Shown: piece after piece, positions 2,678-51,343 of the stretch
Layout of the letters: each line of letters starts with the position of its first letter
Numbering within the stretch: position 1 is the first letter of the stretch
Translations under genes and position numbers: made by a program
Notes under the pieces: model-generated
What the model was told of the DNA's origin: nothing
Databases searched by the model: none
The model's input: only the letters and a program-made list of their open reading frames with translations
Source of the DNA: Chloroflexota bacterium
Lineage (GTDB): Bacteria; Chloroflexota; UBA11872; VXOZ01
Reading direction: 5' to 3'
Length of the DNA stretch: 64,000 nt
Assembly (NCBI GenBank): GCA_965261635.1
Contig: OZ253463.1
Span: forward strand, 353,164 to 417,163

Positions 2678-2891
2678 GTAGTTTGACTGGCGTGCGGACG
2701 TTCTTAACGGCGGTTTCTGTATTTACGTGATCTGGGCGTAGAGCGGGGGCTTCTTCCCCGCTCCCAACGAGGGCCGCGCAACTCGTGAAGATGGATTCCT
2801 GCTTGCGCGGGAATTGTAGGTGTCAGGTAATTCGTTGACAGATTTTCAATAAAGAGAAGATAAGCAACGCGTCGTGCATGCCTTGTACACA

Positions 2892-3019
2892 TGTCATTCC
2901 GAACGGAGCGCAGCGCAGAGAGAAATCTAAAGTGCTGAGCCTATTGGACTTGGTGCGACACGGACTCCAGATTCCTCCCCGTGTTTCGCACGGGGCCGCT
3001 GCCCGCTCGGAATGACACA
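2892..3019. repeat. MITE-like element with terminal inverted repeats TGTCATTCCGA...TCGGAATGACA, copy 1
   Basis: Perfect ~11-bp TIRs flank an internal inverted repeat (gagaaatct...agattcctc) and the hairpin ccccgtgtttcgcacgggg. A second copy lies at 22662-22768 and a terminal fragment at 12893-12909. Confidence 0.55.
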
Positions 3020-3284
3020 ATCGGTCAACACTGCCTGGTGGAAAGCGAATTCTGTCAACGAATTTTTCAACATTTACAGGAATGACGATAGCGTTAGTCC
3101 GATTCGCGTCTTGGGTATCACTACCAATTGTTGCTAATGCAGGTACCGTAGCGTGGGGGCTTGCCTAGAATGCTCCGGATGTATTATTTTGGTACAAGAC
3201 AGGGAGAAGAATGCGAATAGATTCGGATTTGGCATCTATCGCAATTTCATACGGTTCACTGTGGAAGATTAGGAGCAGCAAGAA

Positions 3285-4256
3285 ATGGCCGGCTTGACGC
3301 GAGTACAGCTCGATCACCTCGATGAACAAGGGTACGTGGTCGTAGACAACGTCCTCGATCCGGAGGAAGACCTAGCGCCGGTGATAGCGGAATACGCCGA
3401 CGTGCTGGACGGCATCGCCCGTGACCTCCATGCGGAGGGCGTCCTTGCCTCGACGTACGCAGACTTACCGTTTGATCAACGCCTCATTCAAGTATGTGAT
3501 GAGAGCGGCCAAATCTTCACCCAGGCATTCGACATCTCACTGCCGCAGAAAGCCGAGGGAGCCGACGCTCCCATGCACACGGGCGAGGCCGTCTTCAATC
3601 TGCTCGTGAACTCTCGTCTGCTTGACTGCGCCGAGAGCATTCTGGGGCCTGAGATTCTCTCCAACCCCGTACAGCATGTCCGCATGAAGCTGCCGCGTCA
3701 CGTCGTCCACGTGAAGAATCCTTCTAACCTCGCCGTAGCCGTGCCCTGGCACCAGGACAACGGCGTGGTGGTGGAAGAGGCGGACGAGACCGAGATGCTG
3801 ACGGTGTGGCTGCCCTTGAACGATGCCACCATCGAGAATAGCTGCATGAACGTCGTGCCCTACTCGCACCGGGACGACGAACTCGCAGTACACTGCCCGG
3901 GCGTCGGCGGCGTCTGGATACCGGAAAAGCTTGTGGACATTGCGAACGCCGTGCCGCTGCCCATGCAGGCGGGAAGCATTCTGCTCATGCACAGCAAGAC
4001 CATGCACTGCTCGTACGACAATAAGACCCAGGACGAGGTGCGCTGGAGCTTCGACCTGCGCTACCAGCCGATCGGTCAACCCACCGGTCGCCCAGTCTTC
4101 CCCGGGTTCGCGGCCCGCAGCCGCGCCAATCCTGAGTTAGAACTCCGCGATTCCACAACGTGGACCCAAATGTGGGAGGACGCCCGCCCGAAACTGGCCG
4201 TCTCTTCTACCGAGAACTTCAACCGCTGGTCCGCCGACCATCCGGTGTGTGCCTAA
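3285..4256 (+). CDS. PhyH family Fe(II)/2OG oxygenase, copy 2 (tandem paralog)
   Basis: The 323-aa ORF is collinear with copy 1. Its upstream ~80 bp and the downstream REP elements are duplicated as well. Confidence 0.75.
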   Translation: MAGLTRVQLDHLDEQGYVVVDNVLDPEEDLAPVIAEYADVLDGIARDLHAEGVLASTYADLPFDQRLIQVCDESGQIFTQAFDISLPQKAEGADAPMHTGEAVFNLLVNSRLLDCAESILGPEILSNPVQHVRMKLPRHVVHVKNPSNLAVAVPWHQDNGVVVEEADETEMLTVWLPLNDATIENSCMNVVPYSHRDDELAVHCPGVGGVWIPEKLVDIANAVPLPMQAGSILLMHSKTMHCSYDNKTQDEVRWSFDLRYQPIGQPTGRPVFPGFAARSRANPELELRDSTTWTQMWEDARPKLAVSSTENFNRWSADHPVCA

Positions 4257-4847
4257 GCAGGTTGGCGCTTACCTAGGGGCTCTTGCCGTATGGGACCGCG
4301 CATTCGCGGTTAGAAAATCCGCAGCGCGGAGGCTCGTCCCCCGGTTGAGACGCAAACTACGCAGTGTAGGAAGTTGGATTACCGCTTGCGCGGGAATAAA
4401 GGCATTGGATGCACGTGATTCTTGGCATTCACGCCACCCCAATATGCCTATTCCGCATCTGTAGCGCGGGGGCTTCTCCCCCGCTCCGGACCCGGACGCA
4501 AATCACGCGGCGCATGGAAGTTAGATTACCGCTTGCGCGGGAGTGACGAGCTTGTGCACACGGTTGGGAATGATGGCATCGGGCGCATCCGTCTGTCGGA
4601 TCTCATCACCATTAATTAGCGCGCACTCCGCAAGCGCATACGCCGTGCGTTTCCCGGTGCCTCGTCCCCGGCTCTGCGAATTCCTCATGCGGCCAAAGAC
4701 TTTGGATTCCGGGTCTGGGAAGCCATAGTATACACTTTGGGTAGCAGAATCATCCCCTCTCCCCGTGTGAGAGGGCTAGGGTGAGGGCAACAACAGCTTT
4801 CCGTGTCCTCTTCCTCCATGCACACCACGCTACGGGAGTAATACGCA

Positions 4848-7744: not shown

Positions 7745-8030
7745 AAGTCCGTTCATGCTGAAACCGCTTCACCAATTTCCCACTGGACCGTTCGCGCTAA
7801 GGCCGCCTCGCTAAGTCTCCGGTAGTCCGTTCGTGCTGAAACCACTTCACCACGTTCCCACTGGACCGTTCGTGCTGAGGCCGCTACGCTAGGTTTCCGC
7901 TAGTCCGTCCGTGCCGAGGCCGCTACGCCAAGTTTCCGCTGGACCGTTCGTGCTAAGGCCGCCACGCTAAGTCTCCGCTAGTCCGTTCGTGCTGAGCTTG
8001 TCGAAGCATGAACGGACGGCTTTGTACACT
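7745..8030. repeat. Tandem array of ~40-bp degenerate repeats of the CGTTCGTGCTGAG...GTCGAAG REP family
   Basis: About 7 head-to-tail units each begin GTTCGTGCTGAGG/AAGGCCGC. The units are contiguous with no unique spacers, so this is not CRISPR. Confidence 0.6.
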
Positions 8031-12815: not shown

Positions 12816-13011
12816 CAAACGTCTCTCGGCCTGATCGTCTGCCGGACACAATGGCACAAGTTCAAGGGCTAACATCTCTTGACTTCTCGCTTCGCTCGAA
12901 ATGACACAAAAGAGCTCGCACAAGGCATGATCCGGCATCAGATTAATTCAGTCAGCAACCAACGCTTGAAACTTACATAGGATAGTGGTGTGAATTCAGG
13001 AAAACCCTTCA

Positions 13012-19982: not shown

Positions 19983-21181
19983 TTCTAGGAACACTCTGAA
20001 CAAGTCTCTGGCATAGTATCATAGCAAGAAAGCAGCATATGGCGAGGAGTTGGGTAATGGAGCAGCCGACGTTTGCCGACCTGGAGTACGCGCACAAGAA
20101 GCGCAAGACGCGGCGGGAGAAGTTCTTGGAGCGCATGGAGGAGTTGATCCCGTGGGCGGAGTTGGAGGCGCGCATTGCGCCGTACTATCCCAAGGCGGGG
20201 CGTGGGCGGCGGCCGTATCCCTTGTCGGTGATGTTGCGGGTACACTGCGTGCAGTTGTTCTACAACCTGAGCGATCCTGGGATGGAGGACATGCTGTACG
20301 AGGTGGAACCGGTGCGGCGGTTCGTGGGGCTGCGGCTGTCAGAGGCGCTGCCGGACGAGACGACTATTCTGCACTTTCGGCATATGCTGGAGCGGCACAA
20401 GTTGGGAGAGGGATTGCTGGAGGCGATCAACGCGCATCTGGCGTCGCAAGGCTTGCGGCTGCGAGAAGGGACGGTAGTGGACGCGACCATCATCGCGGCG
20501 CCAACGTCGACCAAGAACCGCGAGGGGGAGCGAGACCCGGAGATGCGGCAGGTGAAGAAGGGGAACCAGTATTACTTTGGGATGAAGCTGCACATTGGGG
20601 CCGACGCAGAGACGGGGCTCGTGCACAGCTTCACCACGACGCCGGCCAACGTGCACGACGTGACCCAAGCGGCGGCGTTGCTGCACGGCGCGGAGAAAGC
20701 GGTGTGGGGAGACGCGGGGTACGTGGGGGTGCAGAAGCGACCGGAGCATCAGGGGCGCGCCGTAGCGTGGCAGGTGGCGTTGAAGCCTGGGCAGCGGCGG
20801 AAACTGGCGCCTGAGAGCGCGGCGGCGCTGGCAGAGCGGCGCAAAGCGTCGGTCAGGGCCAAGGTAGAGCATCCGTTCCTGTGGGTGAAGCGGCACTTCG
20901 GCTACGCCACGGTGCGCTACCGGGGTCTGGCCAAGAACAGGCAACGGCTGGCCTTGCTGCTGGGGCTGACCAATGTGGTGACGGCCGCACGCCAGTTGGC
21001 AGCTTGACACGGGAGCAGTGCGCCCAAAACACGAGTGGGAGCAAAAAACGCTCCCAGCAGCGCCGAAACACGGGCAAAACAGCCCCTCCCAAACGCCAAA
21101 ACACACCCCAAAACGCCCCCACAATCCTGCACACACCAATAACGCCACGCTTGCACCGAGTTGTTCAGACCCTTCCTAGAA
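19983..21181. mobile_element. IS5-family insertion sequence (~1.2 kb)
   Basis: Imperfect terminal inverted repeats TTCTAGGAACACTCTGAACAAGTC (19983-20006) and GAGTTGTTCAGACCCTTCCTAGAA (21158-21181) flank the transposase. The left end closely resembles the E. coli IS5 terminus GGAAGGTGCGAACAAGTC. No clear target-site duplication is visible. Confidence 0.75.
20039..21007 (+). CDS. IS5-family DDE transposase
   Basis: The 322-aa ORF is collinear with the canonical IS5 transposase (FADxEY..KRxxTRxExFL..ME...PW, RRPYPL..MLR..C.Q..YNLSD..MED.LYE, DATII.AP.STKN, VEHPF). Confidence 0.9.
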   Translation: MARSWVMEQPTFADLEYAHKKRKTRREKFLERMEELIPWAELEARIAPYYPKAGRGRRPYPLSVMLRVHCVQLFYNLSDPGMEDMLYEVEPVRRFVGLRLSEALPDETTILHFRHMLERHKLGEGLLEAINAHLASQGLRLREGTVVDATIIAAPTSTKNREGERDPEMRQVKKGNQYYFGMKLHIGADAETGLVHSFTTTPANVHDVTQAAALLHGAEKAVWGDAGYVGVQKRPEHQGRAVAWQVALKPGQRRKLAPESAAALAERRKASVRAKVEHPFLWVKRHFGYATVRYRGLAKNRQRLALLLGLTNVVTAARQLAA

Positions 21182-22661: not shown

Positions 22662-22768
22662 GTCCGATTCATGTCATTCCGAGGAGCAGAGCGACGAGGA
22701 ATCTGAAGTGCCAGAACTCTAGATTCCTCCCCGTGTCTCGCACGGGGCCGCTACGCTCGGAATGACAC
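22662..22768. repeat. MITE-like element TGTCATTCCGA...TCGGAATGACA, copy 2
   Basis: Same TIRs and internal hairpin as copy 1, with a shorter core. It lies immediately after the phosphohexomutase stop. Confidence 0.55.
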
Positions 22769-22820
22769 CAAAAGGCAATATACAAATGACAGTCCAAAGG
22801 GTACGTGTGTTGGAGATCGT

Positions 22821-23898: not shown

Positions 23899-24962
23899 GA
23901 TGGATTCGCTAGACTCACAAACGAAGTGCAACACCATGCTAAGGTGTTGCCATGGGAACACACTATCGTCAACTTTCCATTGAAGAGCGGTGTGAAGTGG
24001 CCCGACTTCACACCGCGGGGCACTCGTACCGGCAAATCGCTGCAGCTCTGGATCGCGCGCCATCGACCATTATGCGGGAGGTGAAACGGAATGGGTCTCG
24101 TACGCAGGGCTACAGAGCGACGTATGCCGCTGAACAGGCGTGGGCGCGGCGCTGGGTTGGCGGCAAGTTGGAGCGGGATGCTGCGTTGCGCAAGACCGTG
24201 CTGGAGTACTTGCAATGCGGCTGGTCGCCGGAGCAGGTGGCGGGACACATGGCGCAGAAAGCGGGAGCACCGGTCATCTCCCACGAGACCATCTATCGCT
24301 TCATATACGGACAGGTGGCGCGCACCAAGGACTATAGTTGGCGGCACTACCTGCCGCGAGGCAAGACGCAACGGCGACCCCATCGGCGCAGTGGGCGCAG
24401 TCCGGCCTCCTTCATTGCCAAGCGCCGTCCACTGGCGGAACGGCCCCAGGCGGCGGCCGACCGCCAAACCCCCGGCCACTGGGAGGCTGACCTGATGCTC
24501 TTTGGCAGAGGCGGCCACGCGGTGCTCGCCCTGCACGAGCGCCACTCGCGCTTGCTCATCGCTGCGCGCCAGCCCGGCAAGGCGGCAGACCCCATCGCCA
24601 GCACCATGTACGATCTGCTCGCGGTCTTGCCTGAAGCCTGGCGACAGACCGTCACCTTCGACAACGGCACCGAGTTCGCGCGTCATTACCGCCTCCATGA
24701 CTTGGGCATCCAGACCTTCTTCTGCGATACCCACGCCCCCTGGCAGAAAGGAGGCATCGAGAACGCTATCGGACGCATGCGGCGCATGCTGCCGCGCAAG
24801 ACCGACCTGGCGGAGATGTCTGCAGAGCGCTTTGCGCAACTTATCCAAGCCTACAATCACACCCCGCGCAAGTGCCTTGACTATCAAACCCCAGCCGAAG
24901 TATTTCTCAAACAAACGTTGCACTTGAAATGTGAATCCACCCTCCCGCTTTCGCGGGAATGA
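23899..24962. mobile_element. IS30-family insertion sequence (boundaries approximate)
   Basis: The transposase gene fills the element. Candidate imperfect TIRs are TGGATTC...AAGTGCAAC (23899-) and GTTGCACTT...GAATCCA (-24942). Adjacent REP copies obscure the exact end. Confidence 0.45.
23952..24962 (+). CDS. IS30-family DDE transposase
   Basis: N-terminal HTH (LSIEERxEI..L...G.S.R.IA..L.R..STI.RE..RN) and DDE region (HWEADLM, TFDNGTEF, PWQKG..EN.NG.LR). Confidence 0.85.
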   Translation: MGTHYRQLSIEERCEVARLHTAGHSYRQIAAALDRAPSTIMREVKRNGSRTQGYRATYAAEQAWARRWVGGKLERDAALRKTVLEYLQCGWSPEQVAGHMAQKAGAPVISHETIYRFIYGQVARTKDYSWRHYLPRGKTQRRPHRRSGRSPASFIAKRRPLAERPQAAADRQTPGHWEADLMLFGRGGHAVLALHERHSRLLIAARQPGKAADPIASTMYDLLAVLPEAWRQTVTFDNGTEFARHYRLHDLGIQTFFCDTHAPWQKGGIENAIGRMRRMLPRKTDLAEMSAERFAQLIQAYNHTPRKCLDYQTPAEVFLKQTLHLKCESTLPLSRE

Positions 24963-25200
24963 CGGGACAATGCTCGACCGGCGAGGGGCAATGACGTACT
25001 GCATTACGGCAGGTAACATCCACCGTGGGCAAAGGAGAATTAACGTAGCGTGGGGGCTTGTCCCCTGCCTCCTTACACGCTCATTAAAAGGGAAAGGCCT
25101 GCAAGATAGATTCCCGCTTTTTCGGGAATGACGGACCTACACGAAACCCTTTAGCGGATGAGGATGCCCCGCCGCACGAAGGGCAAAGGAGAATGCGCAC

Positions 25201-30601: not shown

Positions 30602-31021
30602 GCACTCGCGGGTCTTGGCGGCAGGAGAAGATGGATGCCGCGCCCCCGCAGGGGGCGAGCTTTCGCGGGAATGACGGAGGGAGGACGCTTCGCTGGAGTT
30701 ACGGAGTGAGGACTCCTCGCTGGAATGGCAAGGTACGGACTTTTCGCCAGGATGACGGGGCAGGAGTCCTTCGCCGGATTCAGGGGAAAAGGGCTCTGCC
30801 GGGGTCTCGGAAGATGCAGAGGTCTTCAAATGACGGTACTCCTTGTATCAATGCAGTTTACCCGCGTAGGCACCAGTCTTGTCCCCGCGGCACCGAAAGC
30901 GCGTCGGAGGCACGGGCTACTGCTAGCGAATTCGGCAGACATCCAAGCGGGGGACACTACAGTTCTAAGCCGAAGCGCGCCGCAATCGCGGGCTTACGAT
31001 CGGATACGGCGCAGGCCGTTT

Positions 31022-34123: not shown

Positions 34124-35128
34124 GTGCCAAAACCGGAAGTATTCATCGCCATCACCAAAACGCTGCGGACAAGCCTCTTTTCGGCTGCAAGTGAGGAGCG
34201 CCTCGCCACAACCTTCACCGTGCGCGGCGGCGACCATGACGGAAAGCTAACGAGTGCGGACTTGACAGAGCAAATCACCGGATGCACAGCCTTAATCACG
34301 GGCTGGGGGTCGCCGGAGATTACACCGGAGGTCTTGGCTGCCGCAACCGATTTGCGCATCATCGCCCACAGCGCCGGTAGCATCCGGCGACTCATTCCCA
34401 AAGCGGCGCTCACGCAAGGGATCGCTTTAACCCACGCCGCGCCGATGATTGCGGAGGCCGTCGCCGAGTTTACCGTGCTCGGCATGCTGCTGGGCCTGCG
34501 CTGGCCCCACCGGCAAAATGCGTTGATGCATGAGGGTAAATCCTGGTCGGAGTCGCGCGCTATCGGCGGCAATCTCTTGGAAGCGCAGCGCGTCGGCCTC
34601 ATAGGCTGCGGTTACGTGGCGCAGCGCGTAATCAAGAAGCTGCAGGGCTTTGGCATGCCGATCGCGGTCTACGATCCCTATCTTCCTGACGATCGCGCCG
34701 CCGCGCTCAACGTAACCCGCGTCTCGCTGGAAGAGCTCTTCAGCACGTGCCGTGTCATTGCGAATCACGCGCCCACGACCCCGGAGACGGACGGCATGGT
34801 GCAGGCCGCGCACTTCAAGGCATTGCAAGACGGGGCTGTATTCATCAACAATGCGCGGGCGCGGGCGGTTGACCAGGATGCCATGATCGCCGAGCTGGCT
34901 ACCGGCCGCATTCGCGCCGTGCTCGATGTGTTCAACCCGGAGCCATTACGCGAGGATAGCCCGCTGCGTGGGATGGAAAACGTCTTCCTGACGCCCCACA
35001 TGGCCGGTCTCTCCGACGATACGCGCCTGCGCCAGGGCGCGGCCATGGTGGATGAGTTGGAACGCTCCCTTAGCAGCGAGCCGCTGCTCTACCCCATCAC
35101 GTTGGAAACCTACGATCGCATGGCATAA
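34124..35128 (+). CDS. D-isomer-specific 2-hydroxyacid dehydrogenase family protein
   Basis: NAD-binding GxGxxG (GLIGCGYVAQ) and the catalytic R/E/H triad region. Confidence 0.8.
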   Translation: MPKPEVFIAITKTLRTSLFSAASEERLATTFTVRGGDHDGKLTSADLTEQITGCTALITGWGSPEITPEVLAAATDLRIIAHSAGSIRRLIPKAALTQGIALTHAAPMIAEAVAEFTVLGMLLGLRWPHRQNALMHEGKSWSESRAIGGNLLEAQRVGLIGCGYVAQRVIKKLQGFGMPIAVYDPYLPDDRAAALNVTRVSLEELFSTCRVIANHAPTTPETDGMVQAAHFKALQDGAVFINNARARAVDQDAMIAELATGRIRAVLDVFNPEPLREDSPLRGMENVFLTPHMAGLSDDTRLRQGAAMVDELERSLSSEPLLYPITLETYDRMA

Positions 35129-45016: not shown

Positions 45017-45310
45017 TTGCTTGTCCCCCGCCTCTCCGGCATTGTGTCGTGGCGGCGGAACAGTAACCGTTCGTTCTGAGCCTGTCGAAGGATGAACAGG
45101 GGCTTGTCCCCCGCCTCTCCGGCATTGTGTCATGGCAGCGAAATAGTATCCGTTCGTCCTGAGCCTGTCGAAGGATGAACGGGAGGCTTGTCCCCCGCTC
45201 CTCAGCACCGTGTCATGGCGGCTGAACAGTATCCGTTCGTCCTGAGCATGCCTATCCTGAGCATGCCGAAGGGTCGAAGGATGAACGGGGCTTGTCCCCG
45301 CTTCTTGGCA
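45017..45310. repeat. Tandem array of three ~85-bp composite REP units in the hisA-hisH intergenic region
   Basis: Each unit is gcttgtcccccgcctctccggcattgtgtcatggcggc...ccgttcgtcctgagcctgtcgaaggatgaacgg. The second half is a palindrome (CCGTTC...GAACGG) of the dispersed CGTTCGTGCTGAG/GTCGAAG family. Confidence 0.55.
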
Positions 45311-49585: not shown

Positions 49586-51343
49586 TCAACCCACTTCAGA
49601 ATTCGCGCGGTCGTCTCTAGCAAAGAACAGCAGCACGAACACGGCTAAGAATGTGCCGAGGAGCCAGAGGCGGGGGATTTCCGCAGTGACCCAGAGCAGG
49701 CCGGGGACGAGGTAGAGCAGGCGGCGGCGGTGGGGGAGCGCGAAGAGGAAGAGCGCGGCCCAGCCGAACAGGAGGTAGCGGACGTGGATAACCGGCAGCG
49801 TGAGGATGTAGAAGAGCCCGGCTTTGGCCAGCGCGCGGCGGTGGCTGGGATCGAACATCACCAGGATTGCGAAGAGCGCGTTCGCCAGGCCCACGTAGCG
49901 GTTGTCGAGCGCATTTAGCCACGCGGGGGCAGACGCGCCGAATGCTTGGTACATCTCCTGCACGAGGAGCAGCGGCTCGCCGCGGTCCAGCAGGTGTCCG
50001 CCGAGCGCCCAGCGGAAAGCCGTCAAGTCAACGGCGGCGTACGGTACTGCGATCAGTCCCAACAGACCGAGCGACGTGAGCGCGTAGAGGCCGGCGTCCT
50101 GCACGCCGCGCCAGCGCAGGTACCAGAAGAACGCCACAATGCCGGCAATGCCGAACTCCAGGCGCGTGGAAGCGGCGAGGGCCAGGAAGATGCCGGCCAG
50201 CCAGGGCTTCTCCCACCGGGCCACGGCCAGCACGAAGAAGAGCAGGGCGACGGCGTGGCTCTGCGCGTTATCGATGGTGGCGGTCAGCAGCCAGGGGTGC
50301 AGGTACCAGACGGCCGCGGCGACCAGCGCCACAAGCAACCCCAGCCGGGGCGCAGACAGTGAAGCTTCACCATCGGATTCGCTATCCGCGTTACCGGCAA
50401 CTCCCCCTGAGAAATGCCGTTGCGCTTGCAAAGCCAGCGCATAGATGACAATCGTGCTCAGCACGTCTGCGGTGTAGGTAGGAATCTTGATGGAGAGAAT
50501 CTGCGGCCAGTCGAAGTGGTACGCCGCGCGCCAAATGGGCGCCATAATCAAATTGAACGTTGCCAGTTGGTCCTGCGGCCAGGGCAGGTCGCGGGCCAGG
50601 TGGTAGTAAAGGAAGTGAGTCTTCGTGAAGACCATGCCAGCGTAGAAATAGAAGTGCTGCACGTCGCCGCCCTCGAGGAGAAGATCACGCAGGCGCAGCG
50701 CCAGACCCGCCACAAGCAGCACCACGAAAGCGCTATGCAAGCGTAAGAACTGCCCTACCCGATGCCAACTCACCAAGAGTGGATTTCCGCTTTCGCGGGA
50801 ATGACGGAATGGCGTTGTCCGGCGGAAAAGCGTCGCCAGGCGGAAAGGCGTCGCTTGACGAAGGAGCATTGCCAGGCGCAAGGGCGGCCAGCGGTCGAGC
50901 GCAGGCGCCGTATCGAGCACCCATACCTGCAGAGCGAGCGTAATTCCCACGATCACGTATGCGGCAAGCATTTTCGGCAACGCAACTTGCCAGAGCAGGT
51001 AGTGGGTGAAGTCGGTGAGATAGAACAGTGCCAGACCCGGTGCTCCCAGCCAAAAGGGCGCAAGAGACGAGTTGAATGCGCGCCCAAGCGCGGGGCCCTG
51101 CGCTCCCATGCGTCGGAGCACCCACCAATAGGCCCACTGCCAGCAGATAACGCCAACCGGTGCAAGCGCAATCGCCAACAACCACGGCAGCGACGCTTGC
51201 CACGGCCAGGCGCGACCCACAAAGAGCATTGCGAGAAAAGGGCCCGCGCAGACTCCGCGCAGAATAGCGAGAACCCCTTCTCGCCCTAATAGGAAGGCTT
51301 GAGGCTGCAAAAACTCGGAACTCTGGAGGCGAGAATCACTCAT
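49586..51343 (-). CDS. Polytopic integral membrane protein (DUF2029/glycosyltransferase-like), with an in-frame REP insertion
   Basis: The 585-aa ORF has more than 12 predicted TM segments. Codons around 50780-50880 (LRQATPFRLATLFRRTTPFRHSRESGNPL) are encoded by a dispersed REP copy plus an 18-bp tandem duplication, so the ORF may be two genes or carry an inserted segment. Confidence 0.55.
   Translation of the reverse strand: MSDSRLQSSEFLQPQAFLLGREGVLAILRGVCAGPFLAMLFVGRAWPWQASLPWLLAIALAPVGVICWQWAYWWVLRRMGAQGPALGRAFNSSLAPFWLGAPGLALFYLTDFTHYLLWQVALPKMLAAYVIVGITLALQVWVLDTAPALDRWPPLRLAMLLRQATPFRLATLFRRTTPFRHSRESGNPLLVSWHRVGQFLRLHSAFVVLLVAGLALRLRDLLLEGGDVQHFYFYAGMVFTKTHFLYYHLARDLPWPQDQLATFNLIMAPIWRAAYHFDWPQILSIKIPTYTADVLSTIVIYALALQAQRHFSGGVAGNADSESDGEASLSAPRLGLLVALVAAAVWYLHPWLLTATIDNAQSHAVALLFFVLAVARWEKPWLAGIFLALAASTRLEFGIAGIVAFFWYLRWRGVQDAGLYALTSLGLLGLIAVPYAAVDLTAFRWALGGHLLDRGEPLLLVQEMYQAFGASAPAWLNALDNRYVGLANALFAILVMFDPSHRRALAKAGLFYILTLPVIHVRYLLFGWAALFLFALPHRRRLLYLVPGLLWVTAEIPRLWLLGTFLAVFVLLFFARDDRANSEVG

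Follow-up and report, generated by a model that had tools for sequence, protein, structure and literature searches.

Two palindromic intergenic elements lie in the 64-kb stretch of Chloroflexota contig OZ253463.1 analysed here (the window; positions 353,164 to 417,163 of the contig), whose closest named relatives are Chloroflexota metagenome-assembled genomes (MAGs). Copy 1 spans 2892-3017 and copy 2 spans 22672-22767. Both elements are probably head-to-head dimers of hairpin units that belong, with Neisseria dRS3/NTS and the Ssn-related motif (SRM), to the CGTC/TGTC-tagged superfamily of repetitive extragenic palindromes (REPs). An earlier note had described them as miniature inverted-repeat transposable elements (MITEs). 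Their description as dispersed, non-coding palindromic repeats stands, whereas their description as elements derived from an insertion sequence (IS) and bounded by terminal inverted repeats (TIRs) does not, as each "TIR" is the tag and 5′ arm of a separate hairpin unit.

Architecture of the two doublets

The 11-nt sequence TGTCATTCCGA forms the ends of both copies, with exact matches at 2892-2902(+), 3007-3017(-), 22672-22682(+) and 22757-22767(-), and recurs with one mismatch at 12896-12906(-). Allowing up to one mismatch, the window contained six matches compared to 0.77 expected, a number reached in 0 of 100 shuffles; the match at 34753 (TGTCATTGCGA), located inside a dehydrogenase open reading frame (ORF), is probably due to chance. 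Both copies also carry an inner inverted repeat, GAGGAATCT/AGATTCCTC, and the hairpin CCCCGTGTYTCGCACGGGG (2977-2995 and 22729-22747; two window matches versus 0.03 expected), and are set apart by an indel in the spacer. The exact ends, inner repeat, hairpin and internal indel reported in the earlier note were thus all recovered, within the bounds given above. The combined pattern TGTCATTCCGA-N10-40-GAGGAATCT matched the window three times where none was expected. Each doublet contains TGTCATTCCGA-N-GAGGAATCT once per strand with the tags facing outward, the left unit of copy 1 carrying one substitution. A three-way junction was predicted for copies 1 and 2 on either strand (z = -4.3 to -7.2 compared to shuffles).

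Copy 1 is a tags-outward, head-to-head heterodimer of two TGTC-tagged hairpin units on opposite strands. Its left unit, TGTCATTCCGAACGGAGCGCAGCGCAGAGAGAAATCT (2892-2928, +), has a degenerate 3′ arm (GAAAT for GGAAT); the homologous unit in the related Chloroflexota genome L106 has an intact GAGGAATCT. A 40-nt spacer (2929-2968), conserved in the L106 copy, is followed by the right unit, TGTCATTCCGA-N29-GAGGAATCT (2969-3017, -), the top of which contains a nested hairpin, CCCCGTGTTTCGCACGGGG (2977-2995), that is not in the L106 copy. Copy 2 is composed of the left unit TGTCATTCCGAGGAGCAGAGCGACGAGGAATCT (22672-22704, +), a 16-nt spacer (22705-22720) and the right unit TGTCATTCCGA-N27-GAGGAATCT (22721-22767, -). 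The latter also holds a nested hairpin (22729-22747), a 20-nt hairpin not in the orthologues L205 and L206. What had been taken for a terminal fragment near 12900 is instead a complete solo unit, TGTCATTTCGAGCGAAGCGAGAAGTC (12881-12906, -), which at 26 nt represents a minimal form. Its stem is of a TTC/GAA variant and it contains the mini-hairpin GCGAAGC; in the orthologous unit of a close relative (L207, 274-299) the stem is perfect.

Covariation supports a stem interrupted by tandem G·A mismatches

Each unit begins with an unpaired tag, YGTC, followed by a basal stem of an A-T pair, a T-A pair and three covarying pairs, a tandem G·A mismatch (G·A, A·G), a variable top and an unpaired tail, CT. 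Among 278 matches to GTCAT-N3-GA...GA-N3-ATC, 254 had Watson-Crick triplets, which fell into seven types (TCC 188, TCT 22, CCT 13, TTC 13, CCC 10, GTT 4 and GCT 4). Where the 5′ triplet differed from the selected TCC, it was complementary to its partner in 66 of 83 cases, compared to an expectation of 1/64.

Covariation was also assessed in a second set of 36 distinct 26-nt units, drawn from the protein-selected loci described below, in which only TGTC, the two GA and the final C were fixed. The structure ....(((((..((...))..))))). paired in 95.6% of cells compared to 77.9% after shuffling, with 55 compensatory cells versus 14.1 in shuffles and double changes at all seven pairs; 0 of 500 shuffles equalled the observed values. 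When the register of this alignment was slid, no more than 14-51% of cells paired. The first two stem pairs were AU in 32/36 units and UA in 34/36. The commonest top was GCGNAGC. The oligonucleotide d(GCGAAGC) is a very stable DNA mini-hairpin and Y-GA-R tandem mismatches are stable in DNA; these mismatches and the GCGNAGC mini-hairpin are classic DNA motifs.

The sequences flanking the palindrome were recovered when they were left out of the search pattern (AT-N3-GA...GA-N3'-AT). Among the 187 hairpins obtained, GTC preceded the palindrome in 167, with T at position -4 in 161, and C followed it in 174. The tail read CTC (C 174, T 143, C 133); the consensus tail of CGTC REPs is CCA. All five units of the window have both the GTC before and the C after the palindrome. 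A generic finder for hairpins with "GTC + 6-bp stem" performed no better than shuffles (44 versus 38 ± 6).

Unit tops were observed to take up nested hairpins of other repeat families (window 30633-30676; L208 2097-2145; the left unit of copy 2 in L202), and loops therefore seem to be insertion hot spots. In addition, a recurrent arrangement was found in unrelated phyla (loci L003, L013, L024, L029, L048, L092 and L093), in which a duplicated tag and 5′ arm of 13-19 nt is followed by a C/T-rich spacer of 7-8 nt and a complete unit. These duplications, together with a stray TGTCATT in L202 (2250-2400), may be the footprint of unit copying or repair.

Units pair with tags outward and lack target-site duplications

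In the sampled loci, adjacent units up to 150 nt apart were arranged with tags outward (head-to-head) in 44 pairs, with tags inward (tail-to-tail) in 9 and in tandem (head-to-tail) in 9, while 125 units were singletons. Dimer spacers were mostly 15-52 nt long and clustered around 25 nt. The target-site duplications (TSDs) that a mobile MITE might have left were sought at the borders of 45 tags-outward dimers. None was present (0 nt) in 34 of the 45, and the maximum of 2 nt is what chance predicts. The doublets do possess terminal inverted repeats, the exact 11-nt TGTCATTCCGA ends, but each arm also pairs with an inner partner.

The window contains a single IS, an IS5-family element (19989-21175) with a DDE_Tnp_1 ORF (20039-21007), located between an epimerase gene and the phosphoglucomutase (PGM) gene. 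It is bordered by a 4-bp TSD, CTAG (19985-19988 and 21176-21179), and every relative examined has an empty site with a single CTAG. Because the clean duplication and the empty site show what a DDE insertion looks like in this genome, the element serves as an internal control, and the doublets bear none of these signs. Its inverted ends, GAACACTCTGAACAA, are unrelated to those of the doublets. The element had been a candidate for their autonomous partner and was ruled out, as its ends differ from TGTCATTCCGA. No IS with ends matching the doublets was seen in 214 loci, and the ORFs between distant unit pairs in L060 and L014 were ordinary genes, with no transposase among them.

Units cluster at genes for small GIY-YIG proteins

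The sequence NTS, CGTCATTCCCGCGMAVGCGGGAATCYRG, is bound only as single-stranded DNA (ssDNA) by SsnA, a 94-aa single-domain GIY-YIG protein that cuts a few nucleotides upstream (Chenal et al. 2025, Nat Commun, PMC11893778). The three nucleotides 5′ of the NTS palindrome are the most important for cutting, the C just 3′ is the most important for binding, and neither RNA nor duplex DNA is a substrate (PMC11893778). Across phyla, ssn genes are flanked by SRM hairpins (PMC11893778).

A GIY-YIG ORF of approximately 100 aa was found within a few hundred nucleotides of units in 3 of 120 unit-selected loci. In the Bacteroidales locus L078 the gene has units on both sides, in the Acidobacteriota locus L009 it adjoins tandem-GA units, and in the Flavobacteriales locus L034 it adjoins such units and is frameshifted. 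The neighbouring proteins are single-domain, of approximately 100 aa, and match Pfam PF01541 with E = 4e-16. An alignment of two unit-adjacent GIY-YIG proteins then served as the query that retrieved 80 metagenomic loci, with protein similarity as the sole criterion. Within 400 nt of the GIY-YIG genes there were 193 tagged units (3.36 per kb), compared to 26 (0.12 per kb) farther away, a 28-fold difference, and at least 51 of the 80 loci had a GA-type unit near the gene. The nearest upstream unit was oriented as the GIY-YIG gene in 34 of 42 loci. The commonest layout placed units with tags outward around the gene, which is the arrangement of the doublets with a gene in the spacer. The candidate cognate of the doublets is thus, by association in other genomes, a GIY-YIG nuclease, and not the autonomous element with matching TIRs that the MITE description had anticipated. 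A search of viral contigs for GIY-YIG genes found none. When the other repeat families of the window were used as markers for Chloroflexota among the GIY-YIG metagenome loci, none was found.

Tandem-GA units occur in many phyla

A 20-base unit pattern was scanned over one genome per species in a collection of 596 Gb and matched at least 120 genome stretches from at least 15 phyla. Among the matches listed, hosts belonged to Chloroflexota (Dehalococcoidia, Anaerolineae, Chloroflexia), Acidobacteriota, Bacteroidota, Planctomycetota, Alpha-, Beta- and Gammaproteobacteria, Desulfobacterota, Nitrospirota, Verrucomicrobiota, Gemmatimonadota, Ignavibacteriota, Omnitrophota, Calditrichota, Marinimicrobia, FCPU426, Actinomycetota (Thermoleophilia) and Bacillota (Oscillospiraceae, Clostridiales). 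The inner segments of these matches were self-complementary (mean minimum free energy -13.1 kcal/mol compared to -9.4 kcal/mol when only the inner part was shuffled) and many pattern-selected loci carried several units, indicating that the matches are not random. Searches of Rfam, at gathering thresholds with the whole window and at E up to 10 with copy 2, returned only tRNAs and noise, and a literature search with the literal sequence returned only primers and unrelated matches.

In a Dehalococcoidia MAG (L060, 5539-7212), a 557-aa ORF runs through a unit doublet (...CHSERSAAEPRNL...STSLNMT...). This has the appearance of an insertion of these repeats within a gene and in frame.

Genomic setting and history of copies 1 and 2

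The genes flanking the three sites are all on the plus strand. Copy 1 lies between a PhyH gene and its paralogue, 215 nt past the upstream stop codon; copy 2 lies between the PGM and thymidylate kinase (Tmk) genes, 19 nt past the PGM stop; and the solo unit lies between the peptidyl-tRNA hydrolase (Pth) gene and Mfd, 127 nt past the Pth stop. The elements are therefore intergenic, all between same-strand genes, as had been proposed, whereas a position immediately 3′ of a gene holds for copy 2 only.

Copy 2 is present at the PGM-Tmk locus in five relatives (94, 92, 92, 86 and 82% Tmk identity), and is therefore old and vertically inherited, at odds with its being a recent insertion. Several changes have occurred within it. 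In the clade of the window only, the right unit has a 20-nt hairpin, CCCCGTGTCTCGCACGGGGC, inserted in its top. Immediately beyond the right tag, a 24-nt indel (22768-22791) is bounded by the direct repeat AATGACA, which leaves its placement ambiguous by 7 nt; the stretch is in the window and L202 and not in L203-L206. This insertion occupies the zone in which minus-strand cleavage by an Ssn-type enzyme would be predicted. In L202 the left unit has been rebuilt, with a stray TGTCATT 75 nt upstream, a TTC/GAA stem and, nested in its loop, a hairpin that belongs to a different family.

Copy 1 resides in a lineage-specific block of approximately 378 nt (2768-3146), within which it is surrounded by a 17-nt outer inverted repeat (left arm 2829-2845, +; right arm 3048-3064, -). 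Relatives whose PhyH identity is 95, 87 and 86% lack the block in their PhyH1-PhyH2 spacer. A copy-1-type element, 93% identical, was found in L106 (OZ244922.1) between unrelated genes at a non-orthologous site, the match extending from approximately 16 nt left of the tag through the left unit and most of the 40-nt spacer. Copy 1 is thus a lineage-specific gain, while copy 2 has persisted for a long time. The location of copy 1 in a lineage-specific block, together with the non-orthologous L106 copy, indicates that this type of doublet is dispersed. The L106 copy also speaks against local segmental duplication, the alternative that the earlier note had set beside a MITE.

The right units of the two unlinked doublets share the 20-nt hairpin at the same position. 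In the data examined it was otherwise found only at the orthologous copy-2 locus, and it is not in either corresponding doublet of the more distant relative OZ244922.1. This distribution points to gene conversion among the dispersed doublets or to copy 1 being a chimera. The genes on either side of copy 1 are tandem PhyH-family dioxygenase paralogues (1709-2677 and 3285-4256) with approximately 85% nucleotide identity, and the pair is conserved in relatives.

A sister NTS-type family and other repeats in the window

The sequence GGAATGAC is over-represented in the window (10 matches versus 1.9 expected) and, as the earlier note had recognised, this end is common to the doublets and the CCGCTTTCGCGGGAATGACGG family. 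Tandem-GA units and the CCGCTTTCGCGGGAATGACGG family have in common the CGTC/TGTC tag, a stem starting with AT and a C after the palindrome, which makes a shared protein-recognition end plausible.

The window also contains a sister family that is nearly identical to the NTS sequence. Its units include CGTCATTCCCGAAAAAGCGGGAATC (25109-25133), which matches the published SRM consensus (tested span 25106-25133), CGTCATTCCCGCGAAAGCGGAAATC (50782-50806), CGTCATTCCCGCGAAAGCGGGAGG with a degenerate 3′ arm (24941-24964), a unit with a GC-rich hairpin nested in its loop (30633-30676), CGTCACTCCCGCGCAAGCGGTAATC (4524-4548), a unit with the degenerate tag CTTTATTCCCGCGCAAGCGGTAATC (4377-4401) and, inside the 378-nt block, a hairpin without an intact tag (2795-2822). 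All seven of these NTS-type solo units are on the minus strand. The GC skew of the window was too weak to relate the strand of the NTS-type units to the direction of replication.

At least three further families of hairpin repeats occupy intergenic regions: the GTAG-tagged GTAGCGCGGGGGCTTGTCCCCCGC, GTAGCGCAGGTTTGTAACCTGCGC and TCCGTTCGTGCTGAGCCTGTCGAAGG. Positions of these further families form a first group (2738, 4461, 6688, 25045, 11988 and 32101), a second group (8126, 10998, 27438, 56977 and 57104) and a third group (7982, 17965, 27247, 32339, 35151, 45066, 45149 and 56893). Two tandem arrays, at 7746-7995 and 45019-45267 with periods of 39 nt and 83 nt, are made of the TCCGTTCGTGCTGAG-type hairpin repeat.

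Proposed mechanism and alternative explanations

The covarying unit architecture, the dominance of tags-outward pairs, the lack of TSDs and the clustering at GIY-YIG genes in other genomes are consistent with a model in which the elements are targets of an Ssn-type nuclease. When DNA becomes single-stranded, during replication, repair or transformation, each unit would fold. An Ssn-type GIY-YIG nuclease, with its gene elsewhere in the genome, would then bind the strand that carries the tag and nick it a few nucleotides to the 5′ side of the tag, as SsnA does on NTS, so that a tags-outward dimer would offer one cleavable unit per strand. Tag-adjacent indels and nested insertions in the tops would be by-products of single-strandedness and cutting. 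Spread is offered purely as a proposal, and might proceed via the nuclease, given that units-gene-units resembles an IS and the dimer its gene-less miniature, or via recombination.

A bolder version of this proposal, which we put forward tentatively and consider unlikely, is that tags-outward dimers are miniature forms of "unit-ssn-unit" elements that lack the gene, and that the GIY-YIG nuclease of approximately 100 aa copies or moves them in trans via ssDNA. If true, they would constitute a type of bacterial mobile element, with a GIY-YIG enzyme as its driver, that has not been characterised before, and the tandem-GA units would be a separate specificity class of nuclease/motif pairs. The 20 identical nucleotides of unit termini in at least 15 phyla would then reflect horizontal spread.

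Several observations weigh against interpreting the elements as part of the nuclease-associated superfamily. The published SRM consensus, tested as HGTCWYN(0-2)YYVSBRHN(0-5)WNVSBRGN(0-2)RNCYNB, matched 0 of 4 tandem-GA test units and only the sister-family unit at 25106-25133. The neighbouring GIY-YIG proteins, which are candidate Ssn relatives, matched only the Pfam GIY-YIG model, no NCBIfam model, and UPF0213 structures weakly. Since the 80 loci were retrieved through their relatedness to two query proteins first noticed beside units, the association is established for one clade. A GIY-YIG gene was not found in the 64-kb window, in 105 kb of loci from close relatives or in the sampled Chloroflexota loci, and the cognate nuclease of this lineage is therefore assumed. 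No clean empty site of doublet size was found, so that movement of the doublet as such is hypothetical. Finally, on a uniform-composition estimate, approximately 34 matches to the 20-base pattern would arise by chance in 596 Gb, and a few of the listed matches could consequently be chance.

The architecture of the doublets, two inverted hairpins and a spacer, is also that of a REPIN, in which the RAYT, a Y1 (HUH) transposase present in single copy, mobilises two inverted REPs in the form of a single-stranded hairpin. The lack of TSDs, vertical persistence and singletons that would be remnants all agree with this explanation, and the GTAG-tagged REP families of the window mean that the genome may hold a RAYT. 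However, the tag is TGTC/CGTC and not the GTAG guide recognised by RAYTs, the units cluster around GIY-YIG genes, and no Y1 transposase was seen beside units in the sampled loci, where no systematic search was made. The survey by Di Nocera et al. likewise reports no tyrosine transposase flanked by CGTC repeats (PMC3733652). Mobilisation by a RAYT is accordingly very unlikely in our judgement. An origin as a classical MITE, formed by deletion from an IS with a DDE transposase and mobilised in trans through TGTCA...TGACA terminal inverted repeats, appears highly improbable. The exact 11-nt inverted ends do start with TG and end with CA, as many DDE elements do, and the elements are small, non-coding and intergenic, one copy being an insertion polymorphism. 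Nevertheless, no TSD was present in 45 dimers, no locus held an IS with matching ends, and the IS5-like element of the window has different ends along with its clean CTAG duplication and the empty site in relatives. Moreover, each arm pairs with its inner partner and also occurs alone, and there is covariation in the basal stem, which would not be required of a TIR read by a protein.

Each of the three sites is downstream of a gene on the same strand, the predicted RNA folds are very stable (-52 to -68 kcal/mol, with z of about -5 to -7), and REPs are known to have effects on mRNA stability (PMC3733652). The elements might thus be RNA elements, transcribed with the upstream gene, whose three-way junction would stabilise the 3′ end of the mRNA, act as a transcription terminator or yield a small RNA. 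No Rfam family was recovered even at E up to 10, and neither a T-tract terminator nor a promoter was found at the elements. Both strands fold equally and the dimers are symmetric. The GCGNAGC mini-hairpin and Y-GA-R mismatches are generally known as DNA motifs, and the tag and tail, both conserved and unpaired, correspond to the recognition determinants of a nuclease that acts on ssDNA only and does not bind RNA. We therefore regard a primary role as RNA as quite unlikely, while a secondary RNA effect is possible. That the likeness arose by chance or by local segmental duplication, with no family behind it, is scarcely credible. The 64-kb window does contain only two full copies, but the shuffle controls, the hundreds of related units in other genomes and the 93% identical copy in another genome all argue otherwise.

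The interpretation of the elements as dimers of tagged REP superfamily units has consequences beyond this genome. CGTC-type repeats were catalogued in 2013 without a partner protein, and in 2025 the NTS subtype was identified as the target of a new class of site-specific ssDNA nucleases. The present analysis adds a structurally distinct subtype, with a tandem G·A stem and an expandable top, that keeps the recognition nucleotides, clusters at GIY-YIG genes and is spread over many phyla, Chloroflexota included. On sequence grounds, the tandem-GA units appear to be a variant of the CGTC-REP/NTS/SRM kind that the published SRM consensus misses. If this is confirmed, the set of nuclease/motif pairs would be wider, which would be useful for ssDNA tools, and the published search consensus would overlook part of the family. 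The filled and empty loci, nested insertions and 5′-half duplications provide natural material on how repeats multiply. For annotation of the window, the elements would be REP-like hairpin dimers and not transposon remnants.

Comparison with known repeat systems

Di Nocera et al. 2013 (BMC Genomics, PMC3733652) distinguished CGTC-tagged and GTAG-tagged REP superfamilies. In that survey, CGTC REPs often have the tag TGTC, stems starting with AT and a short tail; dimers with the tags outside (HH) predominate, spacers are 20-100 nt long and heterodimers are common. They comprise families CGTC-1 to -4, include Neisseria dRS3 and Rickettsia RPE-4/-6, have no dedicated transposase and are reported from five phyla, with Chloroflexi listed there for GTAG repeats only. 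The doublets resemble this description in the tag changed to TGTC, the AT first pairs, in part the short unpaired tail, and the head-to-head dimers and heterodimers, as well as in being intergenic, mostly downstream of genes, and without a dedicated transposase. They are set apart from CGTC REPs as described in the text of the survey, which have 8-9 uninterrupted base pairs, a loop of 4-5 nt and a CCA tail. Here 5 bp of stem lead into the G·A·G·A loop and a top that varies between 10-40 nt, with CT(C) as the tail.

REPINs and RAYTs (Bertels & Rainey 2011; Nunvar 2010) share with the doublets two inverted REPs with a spacer that can fold into one long hairpin, the absence of TSDs, vertical persistence and singletons as decayed doublets. 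They differ in having a GTAG (GTRG) guide tetranucleotide and a Y1 HUH transposase, whereas the tag here is TGTC and the associated gene encodes a GIY-YIG protein; the GTAG tag of the window belongs to other hairpin families. Classical MITEs (Correia elements, Chunjie, Coxiella QMITEs) are likewise small, non-coding and intergenic, with terminal inverted repeats and strong secondary structure. Unlike the doublets, they have TSDs and an IS with matching ends, while the "TIR" arms here are parts of self-contained hairpins.

A further close parallel is with NTS/SRM. Judged by sequence likeness, the tandem-GA units of this Chloroflexota MAG, where the sequence examined has no ssn gene, differ from NTS/SRM in a stem broken by G·A after 5 bp and a top of variable length that accepts nested hairpins. 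Like NTS/SRM, they have an unpaired 5′ YGTC tag, a stem starting with AT and a C right after the palindrome, which are the positions found to be critical in mutagenesis of NTS. Moreover, in other genomes they flank genes for small single-domain GIY-YIG proteins, and they occur as hundreds of intergenic copies.

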